DNA from: a virus
IMG/VR virus record: IMGVR_UViG_3300035138_000142
Location: 1-36,933 of that record
Reading direction: 5' to 3' (one strand)
DNA: 36,933 nt
The notes below the pieces were generated by a model, which did no database searches, had not been told where the DNA came from, and saw nothing but the letters and a program-made list of their open reading frames with translations. Below, piece by piece: positions 1 to 36,933 of this stretch. The stretch's first letter is position 1. Each line of letters starts with the position of its first letter. Made by a program: the position numbers and the translations under genes.

Positions 1-72
1 CCTCTATCTCCGCCGTACTCACGTTATCTATATCATCCTGCACTGCCGTCGACAACTTTGAAGGTGTAATAG
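1..72. repeat. Terminal overlap: identical to 36862..36933 (circular closure or direct terminal repeat)
   Basis: Base-by-base comparison of nt 1-72 with the last 72 nt shows identity. Confidence 0.95.
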
Positions 73-128
73 AACTATCCTCTATCTCCGCCGTACTCAC
101 GTTATCTATATCATCCTGCACTGCCGTA
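1..128 (-). repeat. 78-bp (26-aa) in-frame tandem repeat inside the junction-spanning gene
   Basis: Unit 1-78 recurs from 79 onward. It encodes STAVQDDIDNVSTAEIEDSSITPSKL. In the circle it is contiguous with 36808..36861. Confidence 0.85.
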
Positions 129-601
129 GCCAGTTTAACAGCAGTAATAAGCGAATCTTCCAGCCCTGCCGTCTCTATCAGGTTATCCCCGTCCGTATCA
201 ACCGTTTCAATAAAATTACGCTGCCGCTGAGCGCCAAAGTAAATCGTTTGAGGTTGCAGATCCGTATCAACATATATACGATAGGTTCCGTATGCCACGC
301 TGTCTCTTGAATAGACTCCCGCGTAATCTCCGGAGCCCTCGGTTAATTCAAGGCTGTCAAGTGTGGTCGTATGCACAATATAGACCGTTGAACCGGTTAA
401 CTTGGCGTCCGTGTCGGCATCGCGAAAAACCCGGGAAAATGTGCTCGTCTGACCATACCCCGCTGAAATTAACAATAGAACAAAAGTTAAACACCACAAC
501 AATCTCCCCCTTATTAAAGGCTTTATAGTCCCTTTTCCCGTAAGGGATGCACGGGAGGGATTAAGGGGGGTGTTAATAACAGGATTGTTTAATCTATACA
601 T
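1..601 (-). CDS. N-terminal part of a junction-spanning secreted tail-fibre-like protein (continues at 36861 down to 35798; 554 aa in total)
   Basis: ATG at 601-599, with GGAG 7 nt upstream overlapping the stop of the preceding gene. Open to the window edge and in frame with ORF 35798..36916 once the 72-nt overlap is removed. Hydrophobic signal-like segment LLWCLTFVLLLISAGYGQ. Confidence 0.75.
   Translation of the reverse strand, partial: MYRLNNPVINTPLNPSRASLTGKGTIKPLIRGRLLWCLTFVLLLISAGYGQTSTFSRVFRDADTDAKLTGSTVYIVHTTTLDSLELTEGSGDYAGVYSRDSVAYGTYRIYVDTDLQPQTIYFGAQRQRNFIETVDTDGDNLIETAGLEDSLITAVKLATAVQDDIDNVSTAEIEDSSITPSKLSTAVQDDIDNVSTAEIE
503..576 (-). repeat. A-type C-run/G-run palindromic element, expanded and degenerate copy
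   Basis: Plus strand reads tctccccc ttattaaagg ... gggagggattaaggggggtgtt. It lies in the 5' end of the CDS and is translated as NTPLNPS... Confidence 0.7.
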
Positions 602-610
602 AGCGCACTC

Positions 611-1228
611 CTAATGTCTTTTATAAGCGTTTATATACTCCACTCGAAACGCGATTATACCATAATTACCTGCAGTACCTAAAAATTTTAACGTCCAGTA
701 ATGTGATGGTCTTCTTTTTAATGTTGTGTTTTCCAGCGGCCAAAATGAAAAACTTAAGGTTCCGGAATCCCCCTGTGCCGTATCCATGGCAAAGAATGTT
801 TCAGCCTCATTAGCATTAGCCTCACCCAAACCTGTATTATTTGCCAGTGAAATATAAACCGTATCACAGCCGGAAAAAGTAGACGTATCCGTATAACTCT
901 TGCCAAGCGCAGCGCTGAATAAGGTATCATCGCAGGTTACCGTTCCATGTATCCATACCATCCCCTGGGATCTTAGTACGGGAATATAAATGAGCATACT
1001 GTCGCCTCTTGCAAGGTGCAGTTCCTCGTTATAAAAAAATGAAAAGCTATCGTTTGAAGCAGTGTAATTCAGCCCGTCAATATCGTTCATGTCAAGGTAT
1101 TCATTCTGCCCATACCCCATAGACAAAAATAATAATAGCAATATGAAAGCACACAATCTCCCCCCTGTCAAGGGGGGACTAAGGGGGGTGTTATTAACTT
1201 TAGCCTGAACCTTTAATATACTTTTCAT
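611..1228 (-). CDS. Secreted hypothetical protein with an A-type element translated in its N-terminal region
   Basis: ATG 1228 overlaps the upstream stop (ATGA). N-terminus reads MKSILKVQAKVN-NTPLSPPLTGGR-LCAFILLLLFLSMGYGQ, signal-peptide-like. Confidence 0.7.
   Translation of the reverse strand: MKSILKVQAKVNNTPLSPPLTGGRLCAFILLLLFLSMGYGQNEYLDMNDIDGLNYTASNDSFSFFYNEELHLARGDSMLIYIPVLRSQGMVWIHGTVTCDDTLFSAALGKSYTDTSTFSGCDTVYISLANNTGLGEANANEAETFFAMDTAQGDSGTLSFSFWPLENTTLKRRPSHYWTLKFLGTAGNYGIIAFRVEYINAYKRH
1158..1192 (-). repeat. A-type palindromic element
   Basis: ctcccccctgtcaaggggggactaaggggggtgtt: C6, 6-nt loop, G6, ACTAA, G6, TGTT. Confidence 0.9.
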
Positions 1229-1815
1229 CTCTTATTCCTCCTGATTAAAACAAAAAATCCGATAATTAATATGATAGCGCTAACCACCACGCCAATTCCG
1301 ATTGATTTCCAGTAATTAGATTTGTCAACCTCCACAGGCACCGTACTGGTAATCACTATTGTCTTTTGTGGATAAGTAAGCGAATCCAGGCGTACCCGTT
1401 GGATTAGCTGATTCTCCCTGATTTCATTCTTCAGCGTCAAATAAACAATCGTAGAATCCCGCTGCAAAGGCAAAACCATTTCCCGTTCATATATTAATTG
1501 CTGGGGTTTCCCCCCTGTAAAGGGGGGATCAAGGGGGGTGTCTTTAATCTCGCGCTGAGAATTAACCTCATACACCTCCACAACCTCCACCGGCGCCGCT
1601 TCCGCAATCGTCACCGGTTTTGAAATACGCACAACCTTTGTCTTCGCCTGCTGGCATTCCTTAAGTTTGTGCTCCATATCCACAAACCGCGCCTTCCAGT
1701 TCACACACCCGCTTATTGTAAAGACAATTAATAACAACAGTATTGCCAATCTCCCCCCTGTCAAGGGAGGACTAAGGGGGGTATCTTTACGTAGAAACAA
1801 TAATATCGTCTTCAA
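1225..1815 (-). CDS. Putative lipoprotein with a C-terminal TM anchor; contains two A-type elements in frame; start uncertain
   Basis: Lipobox-like LLLLIVFTISGC and C-terminal hydrophobic IGIGVVVSAIILIIGFFVLI. The listed start at 1815 is TTG and overlaps the upstream gene by 29 nt. An alternative TTG lies at 1749. Confidence 0.6.
   Translation of the reverse strand: MKTILLFLRKDTPLSPPLTGGRLAILLLLIVFTISGCVNWKARFVDMEHKLKECQQAKTKVVRISKPVTIAEAAPVEVVEVYEVNSQREIKDTPLDPPFTGGKPQQLIYEREMVLPLQRDSTIVYLTLKNEIRENQLIQRVRLDSLTYPQKTIVITSTVPVEVDKSNYWKSIGIGVVVSAIILIIGFFVLIRRNKR
1508..1542 (-). repeat. A-type palindromic element, mid-gene and in frame
   Basis: ttcccccctgtaaaggggggatcaaggggggtgtc, translated as DTPLDPPFTGGK. 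Confidence 0.9.
1751..1785 (-). repeat. A-type palindromic element
   Basis: ctcccccctgtcaagggaggactaaggggggtatc. It begins 2 nt after the stop codon at 1787-1789. Confidence 0.9.
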
Positions 1816-2239
1816 TAGTCACCACACTTCCTTTCTCGTGTTGATGAAACGTTAGTGTAATCGTATCACCTGCCTTGTATTCGGCCGAAAATAATGACTC
1901 CAGCGGGATTGTAGCAGGATCAATAATACATTTATAATAATTTGAAGGATCTTTATAAAATTTGGGATACACCCGTACAGTTCTCCCGCTGTAAATGAAA
2001 TTTTGCAGGCTGGTAAGTTTATTAATAGTCGAATTGCCATGCACGCGAATAGTTACAAATATATCATACCACAAATCACCGATTAACAGAAGAGTAGGTT
2101 TTCTGTTTTGCGCCCGTTGTACTTTATTCTTTTGAGCAGGCACAACACTACCCTCCATACATTCGTACCGCTCAAAATCGATATTCCCGATGGGAGTCCC
2201 GCTTGAATTAACTTTTGTTATTCTTACACCAGTTGCCAT
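1787..2239 (-). CDS. Hypothetical tail-region protein (150 aa)
   Basis: ATG 2239 abuts the upstream stop (TAAATG). Sits in the distal tail module. Confidence 0.65.
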   Translation of the reverse strand: MATGVRITKVNSSGTPIGNIDFERYECMEGSVVPAQKNKVQRAQNRKPTLLLIGDLWYDIFVTIRVHGNSTINKLTSLQNFIYSGRTVRVYPKFYKDPSNYYKCIIDPATIPLESLFSAEYKAGDTITLTFHQHEKGSVVTIEDDIIVST

Positions 2240-2680
2240 TTATACACCTATCGCAATCCATGAAATGCGCCGGATATCATTAGCGTCCGGATTGCCGTTT
2301 ATATTACTGTATATTTTGCATTCGGTCGACGTAATATCTCCCACATAAGGACAATCAATATTCCCCGCAGTAACACTTAATCCAGTTGGACTCACCATAT
2401 CACCAACCACAACTAAAGGTGCTGTAGTAAATCCCGGATCACCGAAATCACTATCCGTAGCAAATGTGACAGTTATACTCTGAAATCCCGTACCCCCAGG
2501 GTATGTTATATCCGCTATGCCATGCGCTATTTTATAATTATCAGAGCCAATATCCGGCCCGCCCTCTGGTTTATATTTATAATTATGCTCAGTATTATCC
2601 TTCATCTGGTTAAGTTTAGTATCGCTGACTAACTCATTATCCCAGTCCGATGGATTGCTGAACGCAGGATTATATACCAT
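2240..2680 (-). CDS. Hypothetical tail-region protein (146 aa)
   Basis: ATG 2680 preceded by AGAGGA. Located downstream of the large distal tail protein. Confidence 0.65.
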   Translation of the reverse strand: MVYNPAFSNPSDWDNELVSDTKLNQMKDNTEHNYKYKPEGGPDIGSDNYKIAHGIADITYPGGTGFQSITVTFATDSDFGDPGFTTAPLVVVGDMVSPTGLSVTAGNIDCPYVGDITSTECKIYSNINGNPDANDIRRISWIAIGV

Positions 2681-2753: not shown

Positions 2754-4550
2754 TTACCATGTAACTTTACCCCTGTCAGTGTAATCAACATCAGTAAATG
2801 CGTAATTACCGAATGTAAAATCTTTATCATAAACATTAATTTTAATATCACCGTTGCTAATATTTTTACTCAATTGAAAAATTTCAGTCAGTTTTTCACC
2901 CAGTACAGGATGATCTGAACTGATCTTGTATTGTTCATTCAGATCAAAAGCGATTCCGGTACCCCATTTTTCTTTAATAGAATATTGATTTACCCCCCTG
3001 CTCCACATACGATAAATACGCGCTGTAGAGGATCGTCCCGGCGCTCTGTCTGATGTGTGATATGCCGGAAAATTTAAATTTAAGAATGCTCCGATCTGAT
3101 CAGCCCCCGGGGGAAGTAATATCTGGCTGGCATAATCCCCCTCATCATGAGCAAAGGCATATTTTGCCTTTATCCGCTGTATCCTGCCCTCGTCTGTGAT
3201 ATCCATAGTCATTATATCAGCGTCCGGAGATAATGTATACACCGTCCCCGGCTCTTGTTGAGGTCGGTAGGAGCTGATGGCAAATTCACCATCATTATTA
3301 TGAAATACACAAGCATTGATATGTGCCTGTAATAACTCAATCGCCTTTAATACGGAGATCTTTTTAGTAAACGTAATCGCCCCGTGACAACTCTCAAACT
3401 CATGCCGGATAGTAGTCCAGGACGTTGTATCCAGATCACCCGTGCTGAGGTCCGCTCCAAAATCTTCAATTAAAATTCTGTACAGTATTTCCGGAATATC
3501 CGTATAACTGTTTGCCCCCGCCCCCAGCGCGCATGTTGTTTTAAACTCAAAAAGATCACCCTTATCATAATCCGTACCGTCCCAGGCAGATGAATTAATA
3601 AGCAGTTGATGTGTGGGAGAACTACCAATATAGAAATTAGAAGAAACATCCCCCCCCGTATATTCAATACCGTCAGGGTCCGTAACCTTGTAATCCTGTG
3701 AATCACTCGTAAATTCCAGTGTCCAGTCGCCAATTTTGCAATGAGAATCATTAATTGTAATTTCATTCATATCCAGAAGCCCCCCAGAGGCCGGATCTTC
3801 CTCCCGTTTTATCTCCAGCGTGTTAGTATAATTACCCAGGGAGTCTGTCAGTATTTTGTAGGAGTTTGCCTTAAGGTCAATATCCAGTAACTTGCTGAAA
3901 TTGTCATACAATGTGATTTCAGCGCCATCTGCGGTTAGCCGTGGATGCTCTTTAAGCACACCCACAAATTGAGTGATCTTTTCACTTTCACCCGTCCAGC
4001 ATGTCTTAACCGTAATTTCCTTGCCAGGCAGGTAACGCGTTTCCACCATAGCCCCGGCGTCGTAACCCGTAAGCACATTGCCGGTTAAGTTAATCCGGTC
4101 ATAATAGCTATATGATGTTGTGTCAACGCTGCTGATTGTACGCTCTGAATAATTAGATCCGTCTCTTATAACAATCGTTGTTACATTTGCGTGATCAAAT
4201 TTGTCGCCATCGCCCTTTGGCACATCAATATAGGATTGATTCCAAACACACGAAGTATACAACCGTGATGAAGCAAAATAGAACGTCGAGCCTTTTGAAT
4301 TCCGGTTAAAAAAATCACCTGTATTCACACACTTGATTTTCACCTCACCAATACTGAAAGCGCCCAACCTGCCATATGGATAGATACTTTTCTTTTTATT
4401 TATAATAATATTACTGTCCGTATCAATGTAATCCGTAAGATCAATATTATACCCCGATGGGTCCAGTATTATCTCCGTATACCAGGCTTTGATAATATCC
4501 TTTTTTAAGATCGCCTGCAGATTGGCGTGTAGTTCGTCAACATGCGGCAT
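2754..4550 (-). CDS. Large distal tail / host-interaction protein (598 aa)
   Basis: Start overlaps the tape-measure stop (ATGA). The call rests on size and on its position directly after the tape measure protein. Contains a G8 coding-strand homopolymer at 3650-3657. Confidence 0.6.
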   Translation of the reverse strand: MPHVDELHANLQAILKKDIIKAWYTEIILDPSGYNIDLTDYIDTDSNIIINKKKSIYPYGRLGAFSIGEVKIKCVNTGDFFNRNSKGSTFYFASSRLYTSCVWNQSYIDVPKGDGDKFDHANVTTIVIRDGSNYSERTISSVDTTSYSYYDRINLTGNVLTGYDAGAMVETRYLPGKEITVKTCWTGESEKITQFVGVLKEHPRLTADGAEITLYDNFSKLLDIDLKANSYKILTDSLGNYTNTLEIKREEDPASGGLLDMNEITINDSHCKIGDWTLEFTSDSQDYKVTDPDGIEYTGGDVSSNFYIGSSPTHQLLINSSAWDGTDYDKGDLFEFKTTCALGAGANSYTDIPEILYRILIEDFGADLSTGDLDTTSWTTIRHEFESCHGAITFTKKISVLKAIELLQAHINACVFHNNDGEFAISSYRPQQEPGTVYTLSPDADIMTMDITDEGRIQRIKAKYAFAHDEGDYASQILLPPGADQIGAFLNLNFPAYHTSDRAPGRSSTARIYRMWSRGVNQYSIKEKWGTGIAFDLNEQYKISSDHPVLGEKLTEIFQLSKNISNGDIKINVYDKDFTFGNYAFTDVDYTDRGKVTW

Positions 4551-6499
4551 CAGTCAAACTCGCTTTTTTCATTAGTTGTGCTTAAAAATTCGTTATGATA
4601 ATTGGTATCAGGGATGTTCACGTCCCTGTTCACTTTTATGTGATAATCCTTTACCCGCAAAAGATCGGGCTCAACGGCTTCAATCGTAATCTTGCCCTGC
4701 AGCAGGTTGTTTTTATTAGTAACCCTTTCGCTGTATATGCTGGTTGATGAACCGGTATTCAGTGCCATAGCCGGTTGCGTAAGCGGGTTGAATTCCGCAG
4801 TTACCGTCGGAGTGGTATTGAGTACGCGCCCTGTACCGACTCCGCCGCCGGTACCTGATGAGAATAAAGAGCCAAATACATTGCCTGAGCCGGGTACTAT
4901 AATATTAGCCAGAATGTTTAGAAAGGTTTTTACCAGTTGAGAGGTAATAAATTCGAGAATTTGCCTTTTCAGGTCTTTAAAAAAATCATTCCATATTTCC
5001 TTGCCGGTTTTTGCGCCCTCTGCCATATCCGCCGCCCATTGCTGCATTGGTCCCTCAAATATAGAACCGATTTCCCAGGCAATACGCTTGGCATTTTCCA
5101 GTTCTTCCTCTGTAGCCCTATCTATGAGTTCCTGGCGATATTCCAGCAAATACGCGTATTCCTCTTCCCTGCCGCGCCAGATTTCCAGCAACTGATCGGT
5201 TGTGGCTATTGCCGTTTCAATATCCGTTTCGGCCATGGTCTCCAAACCGGCTACATTCCTGTCAAAAAGAGTGGAAAGGAATTCTTCATTCTGCTTGTCT
5301 ATATCTTCAATCTGCTGTTGATTTCTTTGATAGATATGCTGCATTGCCGTGTCGTACTGTTCAGCTATCTGCATTGCCGCTTTAAGGGCTTTTTTAGCCG
5401 CTGCGTCATCGTAAGTTATTTTTCCGCCTCCCCCGCCTGTTTTATTAACCTCTGTTTTTTTGTTTATCAATTGATCTAGCGCGGTAATCTCGGCGTTGAT
5501 GTTTTTAATTTCCTCTTCATAAAACTTTTTGTTATGCTCCGCCGCCTCATCCAGGTCAAATAGATTTTCGAACCAGCTTTTTCCTTCGCTGTTCATTTGT
5601 TGAATATCTTTATTGATCTTTGCCAGTTCTTCCTGCGCCTCAGTCAGTTCCTTTATTTTTTCTGCCTTTTGCTCCTCTGGTGTAGAACTGATCATGTCAT
5701 TGAAATTATGTAATGCTTTTGCCGCAGAATTAAAGAAATCATCGATTGGTGTTTCTATCAGTTTCCCCAGTGCTACTTTCAGGTTATCAAGAGAAGCCGA
5801 CATCTGCCCCTGCTTGACAATAGTGCCTTCGGTCACTTCTCCCAGCGTCTTATTTTTTATAGCCATCTGCTCCAGCGCCACCGCAACAAGTTTAGCCTTC
5901 TTCTCAATCGGGCCCAAACCCTTAAACATTTTATCATTCTGGTTGATCATTATTCCCACATCATCCAGAAATAACGTACTGCCACGCTGCAGACCGGTGA
6001 ATACCGTGCGCATCACCGTGTTAAAATCTTTACCGAATTTTACCGAATACCGGTAAAGGAATTCCATCGTCTTCTGAGTAGACTCAAACGCCTCAGCCGG
6101 CTTAATGCCCGACGCCGTAAACGCGTCCATTGCCTGTGCAGCCCGCTGCATCAGTTCCACATCACTGGCCGTGCCGTTAACCGCTTTACGAAGATTATTT
6201 AAGGCGTCAATGCTATCCTTACCCGCAAGCTGTACCAGGCGTTTAAAAGGTAGCTCCACCTGCCGCGCCGCGTCCGCCATCTTTGCCAGCTCAACCGTAT
6301 ACTCCGCGGCCTGCTTAAGAGCATATACACTCACAAAACCAGTGAGCGTTCTTCCTGCAGCACTAAATACCTTATTGACGTTCTTGCCGCTCTTGGCAAT
6401 ATCATCAATATTATTATCGAGTTTATTTAGTTTTTTTATCGAGTCCTTTAGTTGCGTTTCAACAACCAGTGGGACTTTCGCTTCTTTTCGGCGAGCCAA
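4550..6499 (-). CDS. Tail tape measure protein (649 aa)
   Basis: Long helical, coiled-coil-like sequence with a Gly-rich C-terminal part (GSGNVFGSLFSSGTGGGVGTG). TTG start preceded by GGAGGTG. Position follows the tube and chaperone genes. Confidence 0.8.
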   Translation of the reverse strand: MARRKEAKVPLVVETQLKDSIKKLNKLDNNIDDIAKSGKNVNKVFSAAGRTLTGFVSVYALKQAAEYTVELAKMADAARQVELPFKRLVQLAGKDSIDALNNLRKAVNGTASDVELMQRAAQAMDAFTASGIKPAEAFESTQKTMEFLYRYSVKFGKDFNTVMRTVFTGLQRGSTLFLDDVGIMINQNDKMFKGLGPIEKKAKLVAVALEQMAIKNKTLGEVTEGTIVKQGQMSASLDNLKVALGKLIETPIDDFFNSAAKALHNFNDMISSTPEEQKAEKIKELTEAQEELAKINKDIQQMNSEGKSWFENLFDLDEAAEHNKKFYEEEIKNINAEITALDQLINKKTEVNKTGGGGGKITYDDAAAKKALKAAMQIAEQYDTAMQHIYQRNQQQIEDIDKQNEEFLSTLFDRNVAGLETMAETDIETAIATTDQLLEIWRGREEEYAYLLEYRQELIDRATEEELENAKRIAWEIGSIFEGPMQQWAADMAEGAKTGKEIWNDFFKDLKRQILEFITSQLVKTFLNILANIIVPGSGNVFGSLFSSGTGGGVGTGRVLNTTPTVTAEFNPLTQPAMALNTGSSTSIYSERVTNKNNLLQGKITIEAVEPDLLRVKDYHIKVNRDVNIPDTNYHNEFLSTTNEKSEFD

Positions 6500-10724: not shown

Positions 10725-10731
10725 AATTAAT

Positions 10732-16416: not shown

Positions 16417-16833
16417 CTATAAAAAAGGATCAACATATTTTGCAATTCCCGGACGAGTAAACATCGGACGTATTTTTATATACGCGTTCTGGTTTATAGC
16501 GTCGTTCAGGCTGTTTGTTTTGCTCCCGCCGCCCGATGCGCCAATAGCCAGTTCCTCGTTCAGGCAATATTCCACATGAATGATTTTGTTATTGTTTTGC
16601 CAGAATACCAGGCATCCCTCTACGGGATTATCCACCTGCATAAACTTGTTTGATAACTGCTCCGCCGTCCAGTCGCCTGTGCGCGGCAGAATACCAACGC
16701 TTTTTAGCAACTCAATCACAAATCCGGAGCAATCAAACCCGCGCAGAAAATCATCGCCTCCCCACTGATAAGGGACGCCAACCGAAGCCCAGGCAATACG
16801 AGTAGCTATTTTGCGTTTCTCTTCATTCAGCAT
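16417..16833 (-). CDS. NlpC/P60-family cell-wall peptidase (endolysin)
   Basis: GVPYQWGGDD...GFDCSGFV catalytic-Cys motif and a downstream IHVEY His. Confidence 0.8.
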   Translation of the reverse strand: MLNEEKRKIATRIAWASVGVPYQWGGDDFLRGFDCSGFVIELLKSVGILPRTGDWTAEQLSNKFMQVDNPVEGCLVFWQNNNKIIHVEYCLNEELAIGASGGGSKTNSLNDAINQNAYIKIRPMFTRPGIAKYVDPFL

Positions 16834-17100
16834 CTATTTTTCTTCCACCTTGTTAAAGAATGAATCCGCCAGGTATCCCACGCCAAACGCCGATAAATAA
16901 TTCAGTTCCCCCATCTGCAGAGCCACAAAAAAACCGCCCGATGCGCCGATCAGGGATAAAAGCGTATATTTAAAATGGGACGAAAAATAATTCGCTATGT
17001 GGCTTAAGGTCTGGCCTCGCACCTTTTTTTTAAGAAAATGAGACAGCACACCAAGCGCGGATAACCCAATACAGATATAAATATTGAACTCACTTTCCAT
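16834..17100 (-). CDS. Putative holin (88 aa, multi-TM)
   Basis: Several hydrophobic segments. Immediately precedes the endolysin. AGAGGAG upstream. Confidence 0.65.
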   Translation of the reverse strand: MESEFNIYICIGLSALGVLSHFLKKKVRGQTLSHIANYFSSHFKYTLLSLIGASGGFFVALQMGELNYLSAFGVGYLADSFFNKVEEK

Positions 17101-17118: not shown

Positions 17119-17156
17119 TCCCCATTCCCCTTAATAAAGGGGGTTAGGGGGTTGTT
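17119..17156 (-). repeat. A-type palindromic element; its 5' flank overlaps the TerL stop codon
   Basis: tccccattccccttaataaagggggttagggggttgtt(ca). Confidence 0.85.
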
Positions 17157-18757
17157 CAGTTAAAATCCCCAAAACTCATCCCTGTGCCAACACGCTGCAA
17201 TTCAGAGATAACGCTCGTCCGCAGCCCGCTTGTAACCGTACTCTGCCCGGATAATCTCACTTTGCTGAAATCAATCGGCATCTCGTTACGGTCATTCGCG
17301 CAGGCCATAGCCATGTTTATTGAATCAAACGGATCATCCCCTATTTCAGGCTTGATAGCCTCCAGCGTAGGATAACTGGAATTATTAGTAACAATGCGCA
17401 CATTAAGCAGACTTCGCCTTAACCGCAAAGCCATCTTTGCAATCTCCCGGTCATCCTTACGGTCAAAATAAGGGATGACAAATTTCCTGTTTTCAATCTT
17501 TCCTTTAGTGATAGATCCCGCAAGATGTTTAAATTTCCCCGTATTCCAGACAGGAGCAAAAGACCATTTATTCCAGTCACTAGGTTTATTCTCCGGATTC
17601 TTCGACCGATCGATCGAAATTAAACCATTGTCATACAAAGCATCATTAATCTCCGCAATATCATTCGCCTTCAGCGCGTCACCATAACCACTGGTTACAC
17701 CGTAATAGCGCCAGTAATCAACCACATCCCTGCGAATTAATGACGGATCCGTAGTAGATTCCCATTCCCTGGCATTCAGCCATAAAACCGTATCACCAAG
17801 AACCTCAATAATATCCATCCGGTAAACCGAATGCTGTTTTTTCTGCCCCGAATGCCCCATATCAAAACCCGCGTACACCACACCACGAGGCATATAGGAA
17901 CCTGTGTTGTTGTATTCTATTCCTTCCCAGCCGATCTCCATAGCACATTTCAGGCACTCGCGCAAATAAAATTCCCAGATAAAATTTTTAGCCTCCGTAT
18001 AAATCAGGCAGTAAATTCTTAGCCATTCATCATCGGTCATTTCTTTCCTGGCTAAATCGATGGTGTGTTTGTCATAAATACCAGCCGCAAGGCAGTAATA
18101 AACATCAAATTTTGTTAATACTTTATAATTGCCACTGTTTTCCGTTTGGAATATATTACCCTGCCCCTCCTGGATAGTACCCGACAAACGGAATTTTGTA
18201 GGAATGCCCGAAACATTCTTGCGCCCCCCACGGCCAATAACACGGTTTACCCAGCGGGCAGAATTAATATCATCATATTCCTCTCCGCGGATAATAGTCG
18301 CATTCTCCGAATCAAAATTACTCTTCAGCCCGAAAGTTTTGGCCCGCGAACCATTCCAAAGTTCATACTTGGTTTCCGCCAACTGTTTCTTGCCCCTGCG
18401 GAAAGCAATAAAACTATTTAAAATCTCACTCGGTTCAATCCAGTCAAGATGATATTTAAGAGCATTATTCGCCTGATCCTGTTTAGGCGCGAACATCATA
18501 AGATCAGATCGGGGCACAGTAAACATCTCCTCCATGTCCACCGCCTCCATAGCAACCGTTTTACCAGCCCGTGGCGGAGCAATAGCCAGACAATTATTAT
18601 TAGCCTTAATCTCATCAACATAAATCAATTGATGCGGATCCAGATCCCAGCCCGTCTTATCCTTTAACCACAGCGCCGTACTACCACCCTGGTTGGAAGC
18701 ATAACGCATAACCGCCTTTTCAGCCCTGTTTGCCGTCTTTATCTGTTCGCTTCTCAT
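17156..18757 (-). CDS. terL: Terminase large subunit
   Basis: Walker A-like AIAPPRAGKT and Walker B-like IIRGEEYDD. Size and position fit. Start ambiguous: ATG 18757, 18709 or 18802. Confidence 0.85.
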   Translation of the reverse strand: MRSEQIKTANRAEKAVMRYASNQGGSTALWLKDKTGWDLDPHQLIYVDEIKANNNCLAIAPPRAGKTVAMEAVDMEEMFTVPRSDLMMFAPKQDQANNALKYHLDWIEPSEILNSFIAFRRGKKQLAETKYELWNGSRAKTFGLKSNFDSENATIIRGEEYDDINSARWVNRVIGRGGRKNVSGIPTKFRLSGTIQEGQGNIFQTENSGNYKVLTKFDVYYCLAAGIYDKHTIDLARKEMTDDEWLRIYCLIYTEAKNFIWEFYLRECLKCAMEIGWEGIEYNNTGSYMPRGVVYAGFDMGHSGQKKQHSVYRMDIIEVLGDTVLWLNAREWESTTDPSLIRRDVVDYWRYYGVTSGYGDALKANDIAEINDALYDNGLISIDRSKNPENKPSDWNKWSFAPVWNTGKFKHLAGSITKGKIENRKFVIPYFDRKDDREIAKMALRLRRSLLNVRIVTNNSSYPTLEAIKPEIGDDPFDSINMAMACANDRNEMPIDFSKVRLSGQSTVTSGLRTSVISELQRVGTGMSFGDFN

Positions 18758-19610
18758 CTTCCAGTTCTTTTTTATAACTCTGCATAGCAGGATCATTATC
18801 ACGATCCGCCGCAGCCTTCTTTATTGTTTCCTGCAGGTCCTTAATTCCCTGCTCCTGTTTTTTCAGAGATTCCTCCAAAGAAACCGTCTTACTGTTTTCC
18901 GCGTCAATCAGCCCCTTCATATTCGCATCATCTTTCTCATTTTTCGGAGTCATCATTTGCTGCTCAGCCAGCTGACCCAGTGCATTCATGAATTCAGGAA
19001 TTCTTTTTAACAAAGGATTCGATTGTAATTCTTTTACAGTTTCTATCTCAACTTTTTCCCCGTCCTCATCCTTATCTATAACCTTATTAATAACTTTTTC
19101 TGATTGCACGCCGCGCATAAAGACATCAGCAAACATCATTTGCAATGTCTGAAAAGCCATTCCCTGAGAGATGCCTGCAAATTCTTTTAAATCTTTAACA
19201 TTGCCTTCCTCATAAGCCCGTAGAAATTTGAGCATTAAAGAGAGATTTACAGGGCAATACTTGTAATCAGCGCTGCATTCTTCAAAGTAATCACAATGTT
19301 TGCATTGCGCATACCTTCCCGGCAAAGCAGGCGCTAACACCGTGCACTGTTTCGTATATAAGCCATGCTTAAATCCGTTCAGAGAAGAGCGTTTTTTACC
19401 TTGCGGAGTTTTAGGACCCGTATGTGTCCCCGGGGCATTATCCCACATTTTAGAAAGATTAGCATAATAATGAGGAACCTCATCCGTAGGTTCGCTACAC
19501 ATCGGGCAAACGGCATATACAACGCCGTCCTCATTTTCCAGCCATTCATCAGACTTGAAATAAAAACGATGCGCACGACAAAAAAAATGTTTTGCCACTT
19601 TCCCGGACAT
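18720..19610 (-). CDS. Putative terminase small subunit / packaging DNA-binding protein
   Basis: Overlaps the TerL start. ATG 19610 preceded by GGGGAG. Has CxxC pairs (CPMC, CKHC) and an acidic coiled C-terminus. Function is assigned by position only. Confidence 0.4.
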   Translation of the reverse strand: MSGKVAKHFFCRAHRFYFKSDEWLENEDGVVYAVCPMCSEPTDEVPHYYANLSKMWDNAPGTHTGPKTPQGKKRSSLNGFKHGLYTKQCTVLAPALPGRYAQCKHCDYFEECSADYKYCPVNLSLMLKFLRAYEEGNVKDLKEFAGISQGMAFQTLQMMFADVFMRGVQSEKVINKVIDKDEDGEKVEIETVKELQSNPLLKRIPEFMNALGQLAEQQMMTPKNEKDDANMKGLIDAENSKTVSLEESLKKQEQGIKDLQETIKKAAADRDNDPAMQSYKKELEDEKRTDKDGKQG

Positions 19611-22858: not shown

Positions 22859-23248
22859 TTATTCTTTATTCTTTAATTTAAGATAACTCAATTCCAGCCT
22901 GGCCAGGCTAATAATAGTGTTCACTGATTTATTTATAGCCAGTGCTTGGGGAATGTAATCTTTACTTTTTTCTGCATTCTTAATATTATTCATGAGTGTG
23001 GTTTTAAGATCTATCATTTCTTTGTTTTTAGGTATAGTCTGTAATGCAATTTGTTTTTCATCCTCCACTAATAGAAACTCTTTCACCTTTTTAGGCATGG
23101 AAGCCTCGGAAAATTCAAGCCATATACTATCTGTTACTATCGTTACCACTCCATCCTGGATCCGGTAACTCTGTAATTTATACGTCCTTGTGTTATACAT
23201 GATGGTTTTGCCCATCAATGCATCGAGTCTATTCTCGAGACGTGTCAC
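22859..23248 (-). CDS. Hypothetical protein (129 aa)
   Basis: ORF overlapping the end of the upstream HNH-like gene. Confidence 0.6.
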   Translation of the reverse strand: MTRLENRLDALMGKTIMYNTRTYKLQSYRIQDGVVTIVTDSIWLEFSEASMPKKVKEFLLVEDEKQIALQTIPKNKEMIDLKTTLMNNIKNAEKSKDYIPQALAINKSVNTIISLARLELSYLKLKNKE

Positions 23249-24005
23249 GGATTGCCCTCCTTAATTTTAATTCTTGTCTTTTTAATTCAAGTAATCCCGG
23301 ACACTTTTCAACCATTTTTCTAAGTTCCGGATCTTTTTTTACTAGTGTCGAAGCAATAAATTTATCAGTGTTACGATTGATATTTTTTAATAAATTTTGT
23401 TTTCTTTGAATACATTCCAGATTATCAATTCTTACATCAAGTTGGTTGCCGTTTTTAAATCTAATTATATGATTTTCCGGAATTGGTCCATTTTCCTGCT
23501 CCCATATATAACGATGATATTCTTTCCAGTTTGCCTTGGATATCCGGATCCATTTATATTTAATTCCCCTACTATCACGTCGAACAGTAATGCAACCATC
23601 ATATTTTGTATTAATCGGTAAATGACCCTTTTTAAATTCAGTAGCCGGGCTGTTACGTATGCCTTTTTTCCCGGTATTCCAGGGGATGAGTCCTTTTTTA
23701 AATTCAGTTCCCGGGCTATATCTTACCCCTTTTTTAAAACCTCCACCTTTTACTAACTCTAAATTATCAATTCGTACGTCTAATGAATCACCATTGATAA
23801 ATCGGATAGTATGCCTCTCCGGAATTGGTCCATTTTCCTGCTCCCATACATAGCGATGGAGTTGTTGCCATTTACCTGGAGAAATCCGGACCCACTTATA
23901 CTGACGATCTTTGGCTTTACGTATCACAATACACCCGTCATATTTAGCACATGCTGGTCGATTACCTTTCTTAAAACTTCCCTTATTTGGTTTGTAATTA
24001 GCCAT
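23229..24005 (-). CDS. Tandemly duplicated HNH_3-like DNA-binding protein, apparently lacking the catalytic His
   Basis: Two copies of KYDGC..YKW(V/I)RIS..HRY(V/I)WEQENGPIPE.H.IRF.NG..LDVRIDNLE. Phe sits where the HNH His is expected. Confidence 0.6.
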   Translation of the reverse strand: MANYKPNKGSFKKGNRPACAKYDGCIVIRKAKDRQYKWVRISPGKWQQLHRYVWEQENGPIPERHTIRFINGDSLDVRIDNLELVKGGGFKKGVRYSPGTEFKKGLIPWNTGKKGIRNSPATEFKKGHLPINTKYDGCITVRRDSRGIKYKWIRISKANWKEYHRYIWEQENGPIPENHIIRFKNGNQLDVRIDNLECIQRKQNLLKNINRNTDKFIASTLVKKDPELRKMVEKCPGLLELKRQELKLRRAIRDTSRE

Positions 24006-32778: not shown

Positions 32779-33165
32779 ATGGATATAAGGCTAAAAAAAA
32801 TATTAAAAATAATAGGAATATCTCAAAAAAAATTTGCTCAAGACATCGGAATTCATCTTAATACTATCTCTAGGTATATTAGAGGTCTACAAGTACCGGA
32901 TTCTCATGTTTTAACAAAAATAGTACAGGTTTATAAAATAAATATTAATTGGCTTCTTACCGGCGAAGGTGATATGTTTATCCGGGAGGTATCACTCGAT
33001 GAAATAAAAAACATCGTCAACCTTTATGAAATAGCCGACGAGCGCGACCGTAAAATTGTCAATACCGTACTTGAAAAATATAAAAAAGAACCCGATATTA
33101 AATTATCAAAAGTAGCAGAGGAGAAATCAGACTATGAAACGAATAATAAAAATAATACTGATTAG
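32779..33165 (+). CDS. XRE/cI-like repressor (128 aa)
   Basis: N-terminal HTH: ISQKKFAQDIGIHLNTISRYIRG...NWLLTGEG. Confidence 0.8.
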   Translation: MDIRLKKILKIIGISQKKFAQDIGIHLNTISRYIRGLQVPDSHVLTKIVQVYKININWLLTGEGDMFIREVSLDEIKNIVNLYEIADERDRKIVNTVLEKYKKEPDIKLSKVAEEKSDYETNNKNNTD

Positions 33166-33595
33166 TTTTTGCATAATTCTCCTTTCCTGTGCCTCCCGTG
33201 AAGTATTTAAAATTGATAAGGAATTAACTCATCTTGAGGTAGATTTTAATAAATATATACAAAAAAATTTTATTTTTACTCCAAACGAATATAAAGGCAC
33301 TTACACACCGCTGGGAATTGTCCATTATAAATTGCGTGGAGGTGCTGAGTTGATTGAAATAGAAAAAAGACGAAGTACGCCTCTTGTATGGGTAAATGAA
33401 AATATACATCCCAATGATATATTTGTAACTGCCTATCAAAGAGCCTTGGAAATGGGTGCAGATGCTGTTATGCAACTAAAAATTCAATATGATATGGAAA
33501 AATATGCCACTGGGCATGGATTGGAAACAATCTATTTACCGGTAATAGAAATCTCCGGAGTGGCCATCAAACGCCAAAACCTCCTAAAACAATAA
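33134..33595 (+). CDS. Lipoprotein co-transcribed with the repressor (153 aa)
   Basis: Signal plus lipobox: MKRIIKIILISFCIILLSC. Overlaps the repressor gene by 32 nt. Confidence 0.7.
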   Translation: MKRIIKIILISFCIILLSCASREVFKIDKELTHLEVDFNKYIQKNFIFTPNEYKGTYTPLGIVHYKLRGGAELIEIEKRRSTPLVWVNENIHPNDIFVTAYQRALEMGADAVMQLKIQYDMEKYATGHGLETIYLPVIEISGVAIKRQNLLKQ

Positions 33596-33736: not shown

Positions 33737-34126
33737 TTAATTTTTAGCAATTCTTATTAAACGTGGTTGTTTAGGTGAAAAAAATTCAAAATAATTAACA
33801 AAATTAGTTAAGGCCATTTCAGATTTTCCGTTAATATTTACAGCAATTGCTCCTGCTCTAATATAGTTACTATAAAAACTGTAATTTGGCGAAAATAATG
33901 TATCGGTTTGAACATGAATTACGGTATCAATTAGCGTCATGTCAGATTGTATGAAAGTTGTAGTGTCATCATCTTGCCACCAATAAATTTCATAGTGCGT
34001 AACGTATTCTTGCGGCGAATTAGGTAAAAAACATACCTTAACATCTTTTGCTTCATTATCTGCAAACGATGAACATTGAACTAAAATAGCTGAAAGTAAA
34101 ACGAAAATTATCAATATTTTATACAT
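33737..34126 (-). CDS. Secreted or lipoprotein hypothetical protein (129 aa)
   Basis: N-terminus reads MYKILIIFVLLSAILVQCSS. Confidence 0.65.
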   Translation of the reverse strand: MYKILIIFVLLSAILVQCSSFADNEAKDVKVCFLPNSPQEYVTHYEIYWWQDDDTTTFIQSDMTLIDTVIHVQTDTLFSPNYSFYSNYIRAGAIAVNINGKSEMALTNFVNYFEFFSPKQPRLIRIAKN

Positions 34127-34133
34127 ACAAATC

Positions 34134-34535
34134 CTAATTTTTATGATCTAATATTTCATTACGAAATACTCTTATTATCGAAGGTTTCTTTTTTGTAAAG
34201 ATAATAAGAAAAGAATATTCCCCCAATGGTGCTTTCCAGATTTTCAATCTACTTACACAATTAGCTATACTATTTACGAATTTAATATTATCAATAGCAA
34301 TGACAGATTTTTTCAAATTGCTTAATCCAATTCGCCCTCCTGAACCTGTTCTGTATTTTGTTTCTTCATAATTAATTTCTATTGCTGACTTTCCTTCTAC
34401 AGATATTTCCAGCGAATCTTGTTCTATCTTCAAATGAACATAAATTGCATTATTATCGTTCGGTATAAGGTTTAAAGAATCTTGTGCATAGCAATTAAAT
34501 ATTAATGTTATAAAAAATACTATTATAAATTTCAT
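34134..34535 (-). CDS. Secreted hypothetical protein (133 aa); start trimmed
   Basis: ATG 34535 gives MKFIIVFFITLIFNCYAQ. GAGGGG upstream. Confidence 0.65.
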   Translation of the reverse strand: MKFIIVFFITLIFNCYAQDSLNLIPNDNNAIYVHLKIEQDSLEISVEGKSAIEINYEETKYRTGSGGRIGLSNLKKSVIAIDNIKFVNSIANCVSRLKIWKAPLGEYSFLIIFTKKKPSIIRVFRNEILDHKN

Positions 34536-34545
34536 ATTCCCCTCA

Positions 34546-35571
34546 TTAATTTCGTGTGACTGTAACTCCAACAGCAGCTAAACTATCGCATTCTGAAATA
34601 CCTTGTGCTGAAGGTGTGGAATTCGTACCGCCATCCATATATAACTGAGTTAAGCTGAAGCTAGGATCATGACGAATTACATAAAAATTATTAATTAATG
34701 AATCGATATCAGCCTGAGTCGTTATCGCATTATCGTTAATATAATAATGTACAATTGAAACAGATTGATTAACCGGTTCATAGTCAGTTAATGAGTTGTT
34801 ATGTAAATATAATCGAGTCAAATTTGTCAAATTACCTATTTCGCTAGGAATTGAACCGCTTAATGAGTTGTTATGTAAATATAAATATGCGAGACTAGTT
34901 AAATTGCCTAGTTCACTAGGAATTGAACCGCTTAATAAGTTGTCATGTAAATATAATCGAGTCAAATTTGTCAAATTACCTATTTCGCTAAGGATTGAAC
35001 CGCTTAATGAGTTGTCATATAAATATAAGTATGTAAGATTAATTAAATTGCCTATTTCGCTAGGAATTGAACCGCTTAATTGATTATATCTTAAACATAA
35101 GTATGTAAGATTAATTAAATTGCCTATTTCGCTAGGGATTGAACCGCTTAATTGATTGTTAGATAAATATAAGCATGTAAGATTAATTAAATTGCCTATT
35201 TCGCTAGGGATTGAACCAGTTAAATTACAATTAGATATGTTTAAACAACTTAATTTTTTATAATCTTTTGTAAATTTTAATTTATATGTTCCTGAAGTGC
35301 TATAAGTATGAGACAATGTCTGATTAGAACCTATCGTAGTTATAGTTGTATCTGCTCCATCACCCCATTCTAATCTGATAACATTTCCTGCGGCTGCATT
35401 TACTATAATTGATTCTGCCCCAGGAGTCGATTGATCTGTTTCAAATATTAATGTAGTATCGGTTGCGATTTCTTCTTGGACATAATTATTATATTTATTA
35501 AAACCGCTATAACCAGTTTGCCCAAAAAGTAAAATCGGAATAAATAATAAAATTAAAGCAATATATTTCAT
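34546..35571 (-). CDS. Secreted leucine-rich-repeat protein (seven 24-residue LRRs); start trimmed
   Basis: ATG 35571 gives MKYIALILLFIPILLFGQ. Repeats follow L..L..L.L..N.LSGSIPSEIGNL. Confidence 0.8.
   Translation of the reverse strand: MKYIALILLFIPILLFGQTGYSGFNKYNNYVQEEIATDTTLIFETDQSTPGAESIIVNAAAGNVIRLEWGDGADTTITTIGSNQTLSHTYSTSGTYKLKFTKDYKKLSCLNISNCNLTGSIPSEIGNLINLTCLYLSNNQLSGSIPSEIGNLINLTYLCLRYNQLSGSIPSEIGNLINLTYLYLYDNSLSGSILSEIGNLTNLTRLYLHDNLLSGSIPSELGNLTSLAYLYLHNNSLSGSIPSEIGNLTNLTRLYLHNNSLTDYEPVNQSVSIVHYYINDNAITTQADIDSLINNFYVIRHDPSFSLTQLYMDGGTNSTPSAQGISECDSLAAVGVTVTRN
34786..35253 (-). repeat. 72-bp in-frame tandem repeats (LRR units) with long near-identical DNA stretches
   Basis: gtaagattaattaaattgcctatttcgctagg recurs at 35033, 35105 and 35177, exactly 72 bp apart. 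Confidence 0.9.
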
Positions 35572-35720
35572 AGTATTTCCTTTTAATGTAATCCTATCCA
35601 ATCAGAAGTATTTTCAACGGTTGTCTACGGCCGGTTAACAAAATCCGGCCAGACCGGAAAACCTTTCCACCCCTCCTTACCAAAACAAATCGTACAAAAC
35701 AACAGTATAAAAAATATTAA

Positions 35721-35766
35721 TGTAGGGGCGCGACGCTGCCGTGCCCTATGGGGGGGGGTGTTTTTT
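35721..35766 (-). repeat. Composite element: B-type GTAG hairpin, then a G9 run, then TGTT
   Basis: tgtaggggcgcgacgctgccgtgccc tat ggggggggg tgtttttt. Confidence 0.85.
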
Positions 35767-35797
35767 CGTAATTTATAATTCATAATTAATTACTCCC

Positions 35798-36933
35798 CTA
35801 ATCCTCAAACCGGATAGCCTTGATTTCATTTAAAATTCTCACCTTGACAATATAATCAGCCTCAAGTTGATCCGTTCTTTGTAAATAATTATCCCAGCAA
35901 ATGCCTCCAAAATTTGAATCAGGCAGATCTAAACTATCTAAAACGCCTATTGGTACTTCGCCTTCGGATTTATAAATCTTAATCGACTCTGATATCCAAT
36001 CCTTCCATATTACATTATAACCAACAGAAATTATATTTAATCCGGTATATTCTACGTAATACGCTACATTACAAAATCCTTCACTCCAACAATCTCCCCA
36101 TGCACCTCCAGAACGAGCATAATGGCCTATTCCCGAATCAGGAGGATCGGTGTATAATCCTCCTTCTGCCATAATTGGCGATGTAGAATGCGGAGCCGAA
36201 AATAACCAAAACAAACTATCTGGTCTTCCCCCTGCATCATCATCACATGCTATTTTTGTATCTAAACTATCTCCATAATTGCCACCAACATATCCTAAAT
36301 CATAAATACCTATTCTCAAAGAATCGTTATAAACAATATATATTTTATCTTGAACGCATGTTGTTCCCCACGCTGTTCCCCATAACAAATAATCCGTGTC
36401 AAACGAATCCAATACCGTTGAACTAAAACCATCAAATTTATATACATGATGCTCCACATCATCAACAATATGCAAATTGCCCAGCGTATCAACCGTACAT
36501 CCCCTTGGAGATGTATAAGGATAATCAAATGAATCTATTTTTGTAGACGAAAATCCCTGCAATTTATATACCCGGGGTACGGTTCGACCTATATAAATAA
36601 GATTTCCCGTAGTATCCTGCTCCAGCCACATCTCGCCCAGTTCTGTCTCGCCCAGCGTCCGGATATTATTGTAAACTTGAAGTTTCACTGTCTGAACCGA
36701 ATCCTGTACATCATTTGACAGTTTGGACCAAGTCACATCCCCGTCATCAAGGCTACCCACCCGAATCGAATCCTGAACAGCGGACTCAAGTTCACTCCAG
36801 ACGACATTATCTATATCATCCTGCACTGCCGTCGACAACTTTGAAGGTGTAATAGAACTATCCTCTATCTCCGCCGTACTCACGTTATCTATATCATCCT
36901 GCACTGCCGTCGACAACTTTGAAGGTGTAATAG
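35798..36933 (-). CDS. C-terminal part of the junction-spanning secreted tail-fibre-like protein (repeat-rich, possibly beta-propeller)
   Basis: Open to the right window edge, with stop at 35798. Recurring VYKLQGFSSTKIDSF and VYKFDGFSSTVLDSF blocks resemble NHL/propeller blades by eye. Confidence 0.75.
   Translation of the reverse strand, partial: ITPSKLSTAVQDDIDNVSTAEIEDSSITPSKLSTAVQDDIDNVVWSELESAVQDSIRVGSLDDGDVTWSKLSNDVQDSVQTVKLQVYNNIRTLGETELGEMWLEQDTTGNLIYIGRTVPRVYKLQGFSSTKIDSFDYPYTSPRGCTVDTLGNLHIVDDVEHHVYKFDGFSSTVLDSFDTDYLLWGTAWGTTCVQDKIYIVYNDSLRIGIYDLGYVGGNYGDSLDTKIACDDDAGGRPDSLFWLFSAPHSTSPIMAEGGLYTDPPDSGIGHYARSGGAWGDCWSEGFCNVAYYVEYTGLNIISVGYNVIWKDWISESIKIYKSEGEVPIGVLDSLDLPDSNFGGICWDNYLQRTDQLEADYIVKVRILNEIKAIRFED
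36808..36933 (-). repeat. 78-bp tandem repeat, continuation of 1..128 across the junction
   Basis: Same unit as at 1-78. Confidence 0.85.
36862..36933. repeat. Terminal overlap: identical to 1..72
   Basis: Same 72-nt string as the window start. Confidence 0.95.

Follow-up and report, generated by a model that had tools for sequence, protein, structure and literature searches.

Tailed-phage virions are thought to be assembled wholly in the cytoplasm, and modular tailspikes and fibres combine a conserved N-terminal domain with fibre-type repeats and exchangeable C-terminal domains, with genes that directly follow those for the tape measure and tail tip. A missing signal peptide has even served as grounds for calling a protein phage-structural (PMC6199706). 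The 'Nixviridae' prophages of Porphyromonas gingivalis encode several signal-peptide proteins without known function that follow the Q-rule (Gln at position +1 of signal peptidase I substrates), and also spanins with lipoprotein signals (Matrishin et al. 2023, PMC10367356). These prophages are the nearest published parallel to the locus reported here, a block of six consecutive minus-strand genes at the end of the tail operon of a temperate, siphovirus-like phage (IMG/VR virus record IMGVR_UViG_3300035138_000142, all 36,933 nt of which were analysed and are called the window below). Common to both are prophages assigned to the Fibrobacterota–Chlorobiota–Bacteroidota (FCB) group and predicted signal peptidase I cleavage that exposes a Gln. 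The phage lineage and the hosts are different, and for the P. gingivalis prophages neither a tail-fibre family assignment nor a conserved series of such genes closing the tail operon was reported. In the window phage, proteins resembling fibres for host recognition are apparently exported ahead of cell lysis.

The block stands after the tail-tip genes w598, w146 and w150 and consists of w196, w205 and w554, followed by genes for a leucine-rich repeat (LRR) protein, a 133-aa protein and a 129-aa protein (Table 1). The reading we favour, with restrained confidence, is a mosaic: the block would bring together phage genes of three kinds, all directed to the envelope, and w205 and w554 would act on the envelope side.

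A signal-peptide-type N-terminus was found in all six consecutive open reading frames (ORFs). A Sec/signal peptidase I site was called where a basic n-region and a hydrophobic core of 7-15 residues led to small residues at -3/-1 and Gln at +1, and a signal peptidase II site where a lipobox [LVI][ASTVI][GAS]C followed the hydrophobic core. Four of the six (w205, w554, the LRR protein and the 133-aa protein) have cleavable (A/G)↓Q sites, where the arrow marks the predicted cut, and all four carry Lys or Arg ahead of the core; the 'LVQC' of the 129-aa protein fails as a canonical lipobox. The Q-rule has been described for Bacteroidetes and also for Ignavibacterium (PMC5837995). Gln at +1 is kept in at least 90% of an alignment of 15 members of the fibre family to which w554 belongs, and it occurs in most signal-peptide proteins of related prophages. 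When about 50 ORFs of the window were ranked by their best N-terminal 10-residue Kyte-Doolittle hydrophobicity, all six fell within the top 11, as did a doubtful 52-aa ORF of the block and the adjacent plus-strand lipoprotein gene; other AT-rich early genes of the window showed no such hydrophobic N-termini. Orthologues of w196, w205 and w554 on other contigs retain the signal peptide. The N-termini, their hydrophobicity ranking and their conservation in orthologues bear out the sequence-only reading, which had assigned each of the six a signal peptide or lipobox, and we share its view that Sec signals are unexpected on proteins of a tail module. We predict that the six N-termini are genuine signal peptides, and from them we infer export and cleavage.

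By its parts and its neighbours, w554 belongs to a modular tailspike/fibre-like family. A word-indexed protein search with w554 returned nothing close but the contig's own gene call P0001, and a full HMMER (phmmer) scan of 1.84 billion representatives gave 652 matches. One class of these covers aa 283-366, a stretch of NHL/SGL-like repeats; the other, of about 28 proteins, aligns aa 35-250 of w554 from their own residues 4-13. The family combines a short signal peptide with an (A/G)↓Q end, a conserved domain ('QTSRFEKTFR...YKIYVNG'), fibre-type repeats of the form 'AVTxxKLA' and unrelated C-terminal domains that include Pect-lyase, Cap_depo, hydrolase-like and NHL-like ones; mature w554 has six Cys. 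The family thus has the layout and the gene position of modular tailspikes and fibres, and differs from them in the cleavable Sec/signal peptidase I signal carried by 26 of the 28 members, which is foreign to known virion fibres. In P0060 and P0143, the two members that lack a signal peptide, an in-frame stop lies 1-3 codons ahead of the start, and the proteins begin precisely at the cleavage position of the others (M↓DTFEITPKQ, compared with ...AQ↓SDRFEITPRQ in a signal-bearing relative), which supports the predicted cleavage site. Judged from these alignments, the same fibre protein works with or without export in sister phages.

The genomic position of the family is equally regular. The tape measure and genes for proteins of ~590 aa (26-53% identity with w598), ~130-147 aa and ~150 aa always precede the fibre gene, and this synteny is kept in the window and in the seven relatives' contexts that include tail-tip genes (L017, L019, L022, L023, L025, L026 and L028); in L017 the fibre gene lies between the w146 and w150 homologues. 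The sequence-only reading had taken the block for exported cargo rather than tail fibres. That exclusion is not warranted, as w554 is a member of a tailspike/fibre-like family that occupies the tail-fibre slot in every relative. In an AlphaFold2 model of w554, a beta-sandwich at aa 50-125 is confidently predicted (pLDDT 90-97), residues 1-28 are disordered and residues 29-48 form a lone helix; the best viral Foldseek matches of this N-domain are, weakly, minor tail or tailspike proteins. No relative of the fibre N-domain or of w598 was found among 50,697 GenBank phage records, and pattern scans of IMG/VR with w554, w598 and the family alignment returned no relatives.

The neighbouring gene w205 forms, on comparison of the relatives, a conserved late gene pair with w554. 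Homologues of w205 in L026 (181 aa, 45.5% identity, signal peptide MKLINIILFLFLFSLLSG↓Q) and L028 (175 aa, 30% identity) stand directly upstream of the fibre gene, and the cleavage sites of their short signal peptides align with w205 G40↓Q41. The order of spanin-like gene, w205-like gene and signal-bearing fibre gene recurs in the window and in L026. L021 has the matching order, but its middle signal-peptide protein has no detectable similarity to w205; it and L027 encode signal-peptide proteins of similar size at the w205 position. The phages whose fibre protein has no signal peptide, L023 (fibre 8001-11048) and L025 (fibre 8001-9884), have no w205-like gene and no signal peptide among the neighbouring genes inspected around the fibre gene. 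Export would therefore be a property of the whole distal tail module, and it seems to be switched on or off for that module as a unit between lineages. In the window, w196, w205 and w554 are tightly packed with the tail genes, with overlaps of 29 nt and 4 nt and then a 9-nt spacer. Searches of the six block proteins against Pfam, PHROGs, NCBIfam and PADLOC gave generic LRR matches only, with no match for w205, the 133-aa protein or the 129-aa protein.

A further kind of gene was seen beside the fibre genes of some relatives. In L019 (9688-9990) and L022 (3457-3732) a gene for a 91-100-aa protein with multiple transmembrane (TM) segments lies directly upstream of the signal-bearing fibre gene, and in L017 (11993-12343) a 116-aa multi-TM protein is encoded two genes downstream of it. 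No such gene was found in the block of the window. These proteins may be holin-like or export-related partners.

Unimolecular spanins (u-spanins), with phage T1 gp11 as the prototype, are defined by an N-terminal lipobox and a C-terminal TM domain (Kongari et al. 2018, PMC6139136). w196 has this architecture, the lipoprotein signal and TM anchor already recognized by the sequence-only reading, and it shares with u-spanins the positive residues on the cytoplasmic side of the helix, a periplasmic linker of ~135 aa and a diderm host. A lipoprotein signal is expected on w196 because this is the u-spanin architecture of a lysis protein, and the architecture suggests that w196 functions as a unimolecular spanin. 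A word-indexed protein search with w196 matched only the contig's own gene calls. Its homologues are a 170-aa protein of L017, a prophage in a Caldithrix metagenome-assembled genome (MAG; E 2e-17, aa 22-162), a 189-aa protein of L026 (35% identity) and a fragment in L021 (49% identity). The full-length homologues of L017 and L026 have the lipobox as well as the C-terminal TM helix, and the L021 fragment, which covers the C-terminal part only, keeps the TM helix. The L017 homologue is encoded after two small TM proteins, with an Amidase_2 gene just beyond the tape-measure gene. In the window, no other spanin candidate was found beside the holin-like 88-aa TM protein and NlpC/P60 genes.

The last three genes of the block are of another character. 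GC content is 0.40-0.46 in w196, w205 and w554 vs 0.30 in the LRR gene, 0.27 in the 133-aa gene and 0.29 in the 129-aa gene, and the break from ~0.40-0.46 to 0.30 coincides with a terminator-like hairpin (35658..35635). A single horizontally acquired island comprising all six genes is contradicted by this break at 35.6 kb and by the conservation of the first three genes. Relatives carry different exported proteins at the cassette position; for example, L021 has a LamG protein, and L017 and L028 have three to six signal-peptide proteins, unrelated and as long as 1087 aa. The features of a moron cassette (deviant GC, terminator-like hairpin, variable content) are found in the LRR, 133-aa and 129-aa genes only, not in w196, w205 and w554. 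These three genes look like a separately acquired moron-type cassette, which may be transcribed separately. The doubtful 52-aa ORF at the boundary is probably no gene.

The LRR protein matches Pfam LRR_1 (6e-27) and phrog_6688 (4e-36), and its PKD-like segment (aa 64-108) matches phrog_14220. Its repeats are encoded by six 72-nt DNA repeats, 61-85% identical, at 34716-35291 (minus strand), with units of the form 'LxxLxxLxLxxNxLSGSIPSEIGNL', the plant-specific LRR type. Thousands of cellular proteins match them at 50-70% identity, and a large number of these have the type IX secretion system (T9SS) sorting domain PF18962; the phage protein is without that domain. The few named cellular relatives are from Marinimicrobia/Neomarinimicrobiota.

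A seventh signal-bearing gene, encoding a 153-aa lipoprotein, overlaps the end of the CI-like repressor gene on the plus strand and is probably co-transcribed with it. A signal-peptide or lipoprotein gene likewise lies beside a repressor-like gene in L017, L021 and L026. The 153-aa protein is a candidate superinfection-exclusion or lysogenic-conversion protein. Like the cassette, it recalls morons such as lambda lom and bor, phi80/N15 cor and T5 llp, which are small exported-protein or lipoprotein genes of deviant GC that lie between the tail and lysogeny modules and vary among relatives; the window genes have no homology to those proteins.

The N-termini of w196, w205 and w554 have in common the motif NTPLSPPLTGGR just before the hydrophobic core. 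This motif is the sole open frame (TPLxPPxTGG[KR]) of a GC-rich DNA repeat that reads, on the minus strand, AACACCCCCC-TTAGT-CCCCCC-TTGACA-GGGGGG-A (TTAnT across copies) and contains a C6/G6 hairpin. At least 12 copies of the element are present, every one in the orientation of the late operon, and they occur solely within 0.5-17.2 kb and at 35.7 kb. Its stem lengths covary (6/6, 5/5, 4/4), its hairpins form stable 8-bp GC stems, and runs of five or more C are in five-fold excess (21 observed vs 3.9 in shuffles). The usual layout in spacers is stop, element, Shine-Dalgarno (SD) sequence and start (e.g. 17127-17150, 2715-2738 and 7525-7580). In w196, w205 and w554 the order is instead SD, start, short peptide, element, 'GAGATTG' and hydrophobic core, and the 20-35 residues upstream of the core are element read-through, not part of a normal signal peptide. 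The element is absent from all orthologues of these three proteins. The signal peptides of these orthologues are short, of textbook form and aligned with the same hydrophobic core and cleavage site; the N-terminal extensions are thus secondary and phage-specific, and the mature proteins are unaffected by uncertainty over the start codon. A TTG after the hairpin (in the conserved 'GGGGGAGATTG') is disfavoured as the true start by its 1-3-nt SD spacing, by the G-run within the 8-bp stem and by the good upstream SD and ATG of w205 and w554.

Read-through of the element was found in at least six called ORFs, and in two cases it is predicted to be translated in-frame. w196 carries two in-frame copies, of which the internal one is flanked on both sides by homology to single-polypeptide relatives. 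In the Mu F protein a copy lies at aa 52-62 and homologues align from ~aa 54-75; the alignment across the element is too weak to show insertion directly, and the protein must start upstream of the element because no in-frame start codon follows it. The AlphaFold2 model of w554, in which the element-encoded residues 1-28 are disordered and residues 29-48 stand as a helix apart, also speaks for the element being translatable. The element also occurs in 13 stretches (~11 contigs; L002-L014) of unrelated viral contigs of 44-61% GC, mostly in intergenic positions and with no fixed orientation. An Rfam scan of the window gave no family, and the element may be an mRNA hairpin, a processing site or a selfish repeat. 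With the Rickettsia palindromic elements (RPEs) and palindromes of the repetitive extragenic palindrome (REP) and bacterial interspersed mosaic element type it shares a short palindrome, one open frame, an occurrence both between and inside coding sequences, and translation. It differs from RPEs in being much shorter (~35-55 nt), in its C6/G6 stem, in its residence in a phage genome and in the co-orientation of all copies, with no associated transposase identified.

A second repeat family, GTAGGGGC...GCCC, has six plus-strand copies in the late region and the block, and a single further match on the minus strand stands alone at 20447. An outer CCCC/GGGG stem often encloses a copy of this family together with the first element. 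Its layout of GTAG plus palindrome resembles that of REP elements; no RAYT-type transposase was seen in the window.

Under the favoured mosaic reading, all proteins of the block would use the host Sec pathway, with cleavage sites adapted to the host. w196 would be exported and lipidated at Cys37 in the outer membrane, with its C-terminal helix in the inner membrane, and would disrupt the outer membrane at lysis alongside the products of the holin-like and NlpC/P60 genes (16.4-17.1 kb). w205 and w554 would be exported and cut by signal peptidase I to leave an N-terminal Gln. w554 would be of tailspike/fibre type, built from a conserved beta-sandwich N-domain, repeats of fibre type and a C-terminal binding or depolymerase domain that is exchangeable. 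Rather than assembling onto tails in the cytoplasm, the two proteins would fold and act in the periplasm or on the envelope side late in infection, binding or degrading envelope glycans. The LRR, 133-aa and 129-aa genes would be a separately acquired low-GC, moron-type cassette of exported proteins by the lysogeny switch, and the long N-terminal extensions of w196, w205 and w554 are read-through of the palindromic repeat that has colonised the late operon, not special features of their signal peptides.

Several observations weigh against this reading. The signal-peptide calls are based on heuristics and on conservation in orthologues, and the start of w196, w205 and w554 is uncertain (an upstream ATG/TTG, or a TTG directly after the hairpin), with gene callers disagreeing on that of w196. 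w196 lies 15 kb from the holin-like and endolysin genes (16417..17100) and so outside the lysis cassette; a location in or next to that cassette is usual for spanins, not strictly defining. w196 and its relatives also have a conserved periplasmic Cys (K-x-C-Q-[QK]-A), and a periplasmic Cys was found in none of the 58 catalogued u-spanins (PMC6139136). In addition to its location and its Cys, w196 departs from u-spanins in having no sequence similarity to their known families and in its in-frame insertion of the repeat element. The periplasmic domain of u-spanins is predicted to be mainly beta-strand; the single-sequence AlphaFold2 model of w196 has low confidence (mean pLDDT 50), with strands at aa 110-145, and the Foldseek matches of the w554 N-domain are weak and generic Ig/CnaB-like (E of at least 5e-3 in PDB and at least 2e-3 in BFVD). 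As regards the cassette, the terminator is a consensus match only, the promoter scan was one without FCB-host promoters, and low GC is also found in the adjacent repressor and lipoprotein genes (0.31-0.34) and at 19.5-23 kb. Finally, the orthologues without signal peptide, the conserved N-domain and the conserved tail-tip genes argue for the fibre-like protein as a virion component, which conflicts with a purely envelope-side role and favours maturation in the periplasm.

The main alternative, which we consider unlikely, is that the virion's own fibre or tailspike is w554, along with w205 and possibly the exported proteins encoded downstream. It would be exported, cleaved and folded in the periplasm and would dock onto cytoplasmic tails after the holin has merged the compartments or after release. 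The orthologues without signal peptide stand in the identical tail slot and start at the cleavage site, the N-domain is conserved along with w598, w146 and w150 whilst the C-terminal domains vary like those of receptor-binding proteins (Cap_depo, Pect-lyase), and the L017 fibre gene stands between tail-tip genes. In L028 four more large signal-peptide proteins follow, resembling a multi-tailspike array, one of them possibly beta-helical by eye. Late attachment is physically possible, since in-vitro addition to particles works for the tailspikes of P22 and the fibres of T4. However, no precedent for Sec-exported tail fibres was found in a literature search, and assembly after mixing of the compartments would be inefficient. 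A small candidate receptor-binding protein without a signal peptide exists in the w146 family (with a weak H_lectin match in L028), so that w554 is not strictly needed on the virion, and the fold match of its N-domain to tail proteins is weak. In a more extensive form, which we hold to be doubtful, the whole host-recognition apparatus (fibre or tailspike, partner and accessory binding proteins) would be Sec-routed, trimmed by signal peptidase I to a pyroglutamyl N-terminus, folded in the periplasm and attached to tails only after holin-mediated merging of the compartments. If true, such routing would be an undescribed extracytoplasmic step in tailed-phage assembly.

The sequence-only reading proposed that all six proteins may be exported as cargo, serving lysogenic conversion or surface remodelling; the prophage would express such cargo, which would have nothing to do with tail function or lysis. 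As an alternative it suggested that the signals could reflect an unusual assembly route associated with the envelope. In favour of cargo, the block does occupy the place classical for morons, next to the repressor where the late operon ends; part of it is low in GC, the adjacent lipoprotein gene is co-oriented with the repressor gene, and the P. gingivalis prophages also carry unexplained Q-rule signal-peptide genes (PMC10367356). Against this, w196, w205 and w554 have the GC of the late operon, overlap or abut tail genes, and are conserved core genes across relatives with spanin and tailspike-family architectures, and PADLOC gave no defence matches. As an account of all six genes, cargo is in our judgement quite improbable. 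It fits the LRR, 133-aa and 129-aa genes, with their 27-30% GC, boundary hairpin, variable content and cellular LRR kin, and fails for w196, with its u-spanin architecture, and for w205 and w554 as conserved core late genes. The associated remark that the AT-richness of the 33.7-35.6 kb region is consistent with horizontal acquisition holds in so far as the low GC of its genes is real, and is weakened by the low GC that the region has in common with the repressor region and 19.5-23 kb.

Most improbable of all is that the signal peptides are artefacts of AT-rich composition, mis-called starts, element read-through or uncleaved membrane anchors, for although three of the N-termini hold non-canonical element-encoded stretches, gene callers disagree on the w196 start and AT-rich genes are rich in I, L and F, the element-free orthologues have textbook signal peptides on the same core and cleavage site, the Gln at +1 is conserved, and a purely compositional origin is contradicted by the AT-rich early genes without such N-termini and by the signal-less orthologues that begin exactly at the cleavage site.

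The other features of the window are listed with the block in Table 1. The start of the window recurs at its end as an exact 72-nt repeat (bases 36862-36933 duplicate 1-72), which indicates a circular (circularly permuted) genome of 36,861 bp, with almost all genes on the minus strand. Joining the ends across this overlap reproduces the junction-spanning 554-aa ORF proposed by the sequence-only reading. The junction falls within the fibre gene, in a perfect tandem repeat of a 78-nt (26-aa) unit with 2.3 copies once joined (window 1-150 and 36804-36933), and an independently made Logan assembly of this phage, which matches at 100% identity over 11,131 nt, stops inside this repeat at window position 98. 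The copy number of the repeat, and hence the length of w554, is uncertain because of this; 554 aa is a minimum and the repeat may be under-assembled. The host is probably an FCB-group bacterium, as suggested by three indirect lines: the Q-rule pattern, the LRR relatives and one Caldithrix MAG, the one genome matched in a scan of species genomes.

Some further genes of the window deserve mention. The lysis genes (16417-17100, minus strand) lie between the large terminase and portal genes, an uncommon place and apart from the spanin candidate. In the head module, a 121-aa protein (MSKKLTTILLILLCAIIAVGA..., 10732-11097, minus strand) with an N-terminal TM or signal-like segment adjoins the capsid gene, and a 95-aa protein (13859-14146, minus strand) has a TM segment near aa 51. 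The HNH endonuclease gene (23229-24005, minus strand) has two HNH_3 stretches and an internal direct repeat of 143 nt, 73% identical (23416-23558 / 23758-23900).

Table 1. Coordinates of the six-gene block, the repeat elements and other features of the window (↓, predicted cleavage)
Feature	Coordinates	Strand	Description
w196	1225..1815	-	196 aa; N-terminus RLAILLLLIVFTISG↓C37, canonical lipobox (I-S-G-C37; ISG↓C37, Cys codon 1705-1707); C-terminal TM helix aa 172-191 (1243-1302) then RRNKR
w205	611..1228	-	205 aa; ATG 1228 with SD AGGAGGA 7 nt upstream; N-terminus RLCAFILLLLFLSMGYG↓Q41 (GYG↓Q41)
w554, N-terminal part	1..601	-	N-terminus RLLWCLTFVLLLISAGYG↓Q51 (GYG↓Q); element-encoded extension, signal peptide (G50↓Q51, coding 452-601), beta-sandwich N-domain, fibre-type repeats
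w554, C-terminal part	35798..36933	-	NHL/SGL-like beta-propeller-type repeats (aa 283-366), orphan C-terminal domain
52-aa ORF	35625..35783	-	two repeat-element copies and the terminator-like hairpin
Terminator-like hairpin	35635..35658	-	TCCGGTCTGGCCGGA then TTTTGTT; between w554 and LRR gene; consensus match
LRR protein	34546..35571	-	341 aa from ATG 35571 (real start); N-terminus MKYIALILLFIPILLFG↓Q18 (LFG↓Q18); PKD-like segment; six 24-residue plant-type LRRs
133-aa predicted exported orphan	34134..34535	-	N-terminus MKFIIVFFITLIFNCYA↓Q18 (CYA↓Q); GC 0.27
129-aa predicted exported orphan	33737..34126	-	N-terminus MYKILIIFVLLSAILVQCSSFA↓D, fits signal peptidase I-type site (SSFA↓D) without Gln at +1; GC 0.29; last block gene, convergent with repressor operon
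Lipoprotein	33134..33595	+	153 aa; MKRIIKIILISFCIILLS↓C (L-L-S-C lipobox); seventh signal-bearing gene; overlaps end of repressor gene
CI-like repressor	32779..33165	+	Pfam
Repeat element, all copies	554-580, 1153-1208, 1503-1558, 1746-1801, 2715-2738, 6553-6592, 7525-7580, 8610-8665, 10666-10699, 14769-14824, 17127-17150, 35748-35766	-	
Element copy	1746..1801	-	right after TAA stop of gene 1787..2239; read through as KDTPLSPPLTGGR, w196 N-terminus
Element copy	1503..1558	-	inside w196, aa 92-102 DTPLDPPFTGG, in-frame
Element copy	1153..1208	-	read through as NNTPLSPPLTGGR, w205 aa 13-23; 8-bp GC hairpin
Composite (nested) element copy	506..574	-	5' end of w554, aa 10-32
Second repeat family	8392-8416, 9736-9760, 10700-10724, 13814-13838, 14159-14183, 35722-35746	+	GTAG then GC-rich palindrome
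w150	1787..2239		tail-tip gene kept in relatives
w146	2240..2680		tail-tip gene kept in relatives
w598	2754..4550		tail-tip gene kept in relatives
Tape-measure-like protein	4550..6499		Pfam
YomU-type tail tube			Pfam
Mu-type portal, Mu F protein, cement protein, gpE-type capsid protein			head genes; Pfam
NlpC/P60 peptidase	16417..16833	-	138 aa; Pfam 9e-14
Holin-like TM protein	16834..17100	-	88 aa; Pfam scan of window
Large terminase	17156..18802		Pfam
Integrase, HNH endonuclease, primase, DUF5131			Pfam

The locus holds a lesson for annotation, in that gene callers read through GC-rich palindromic repeats, which in places appear to be really translated, and the resulting distorted N-termini can confuse start-site and signal-peptide calls. 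Beyond this, a protein family with the hallmarks of tailspikes and fibres carries a conserved, host-adapted Sec signal in most of its members, and the sister phages without it amount to a natural experiment. Either tail fibres mature outside the cytoplasm in these phages, or proteins of fibre type have repeatedly been converted by phages into exported factors that act on the envelope. Each outcome would bear on the prediction of host range, on the remodelling of FCB-group cell surfaces by prophages and on annotation practice.

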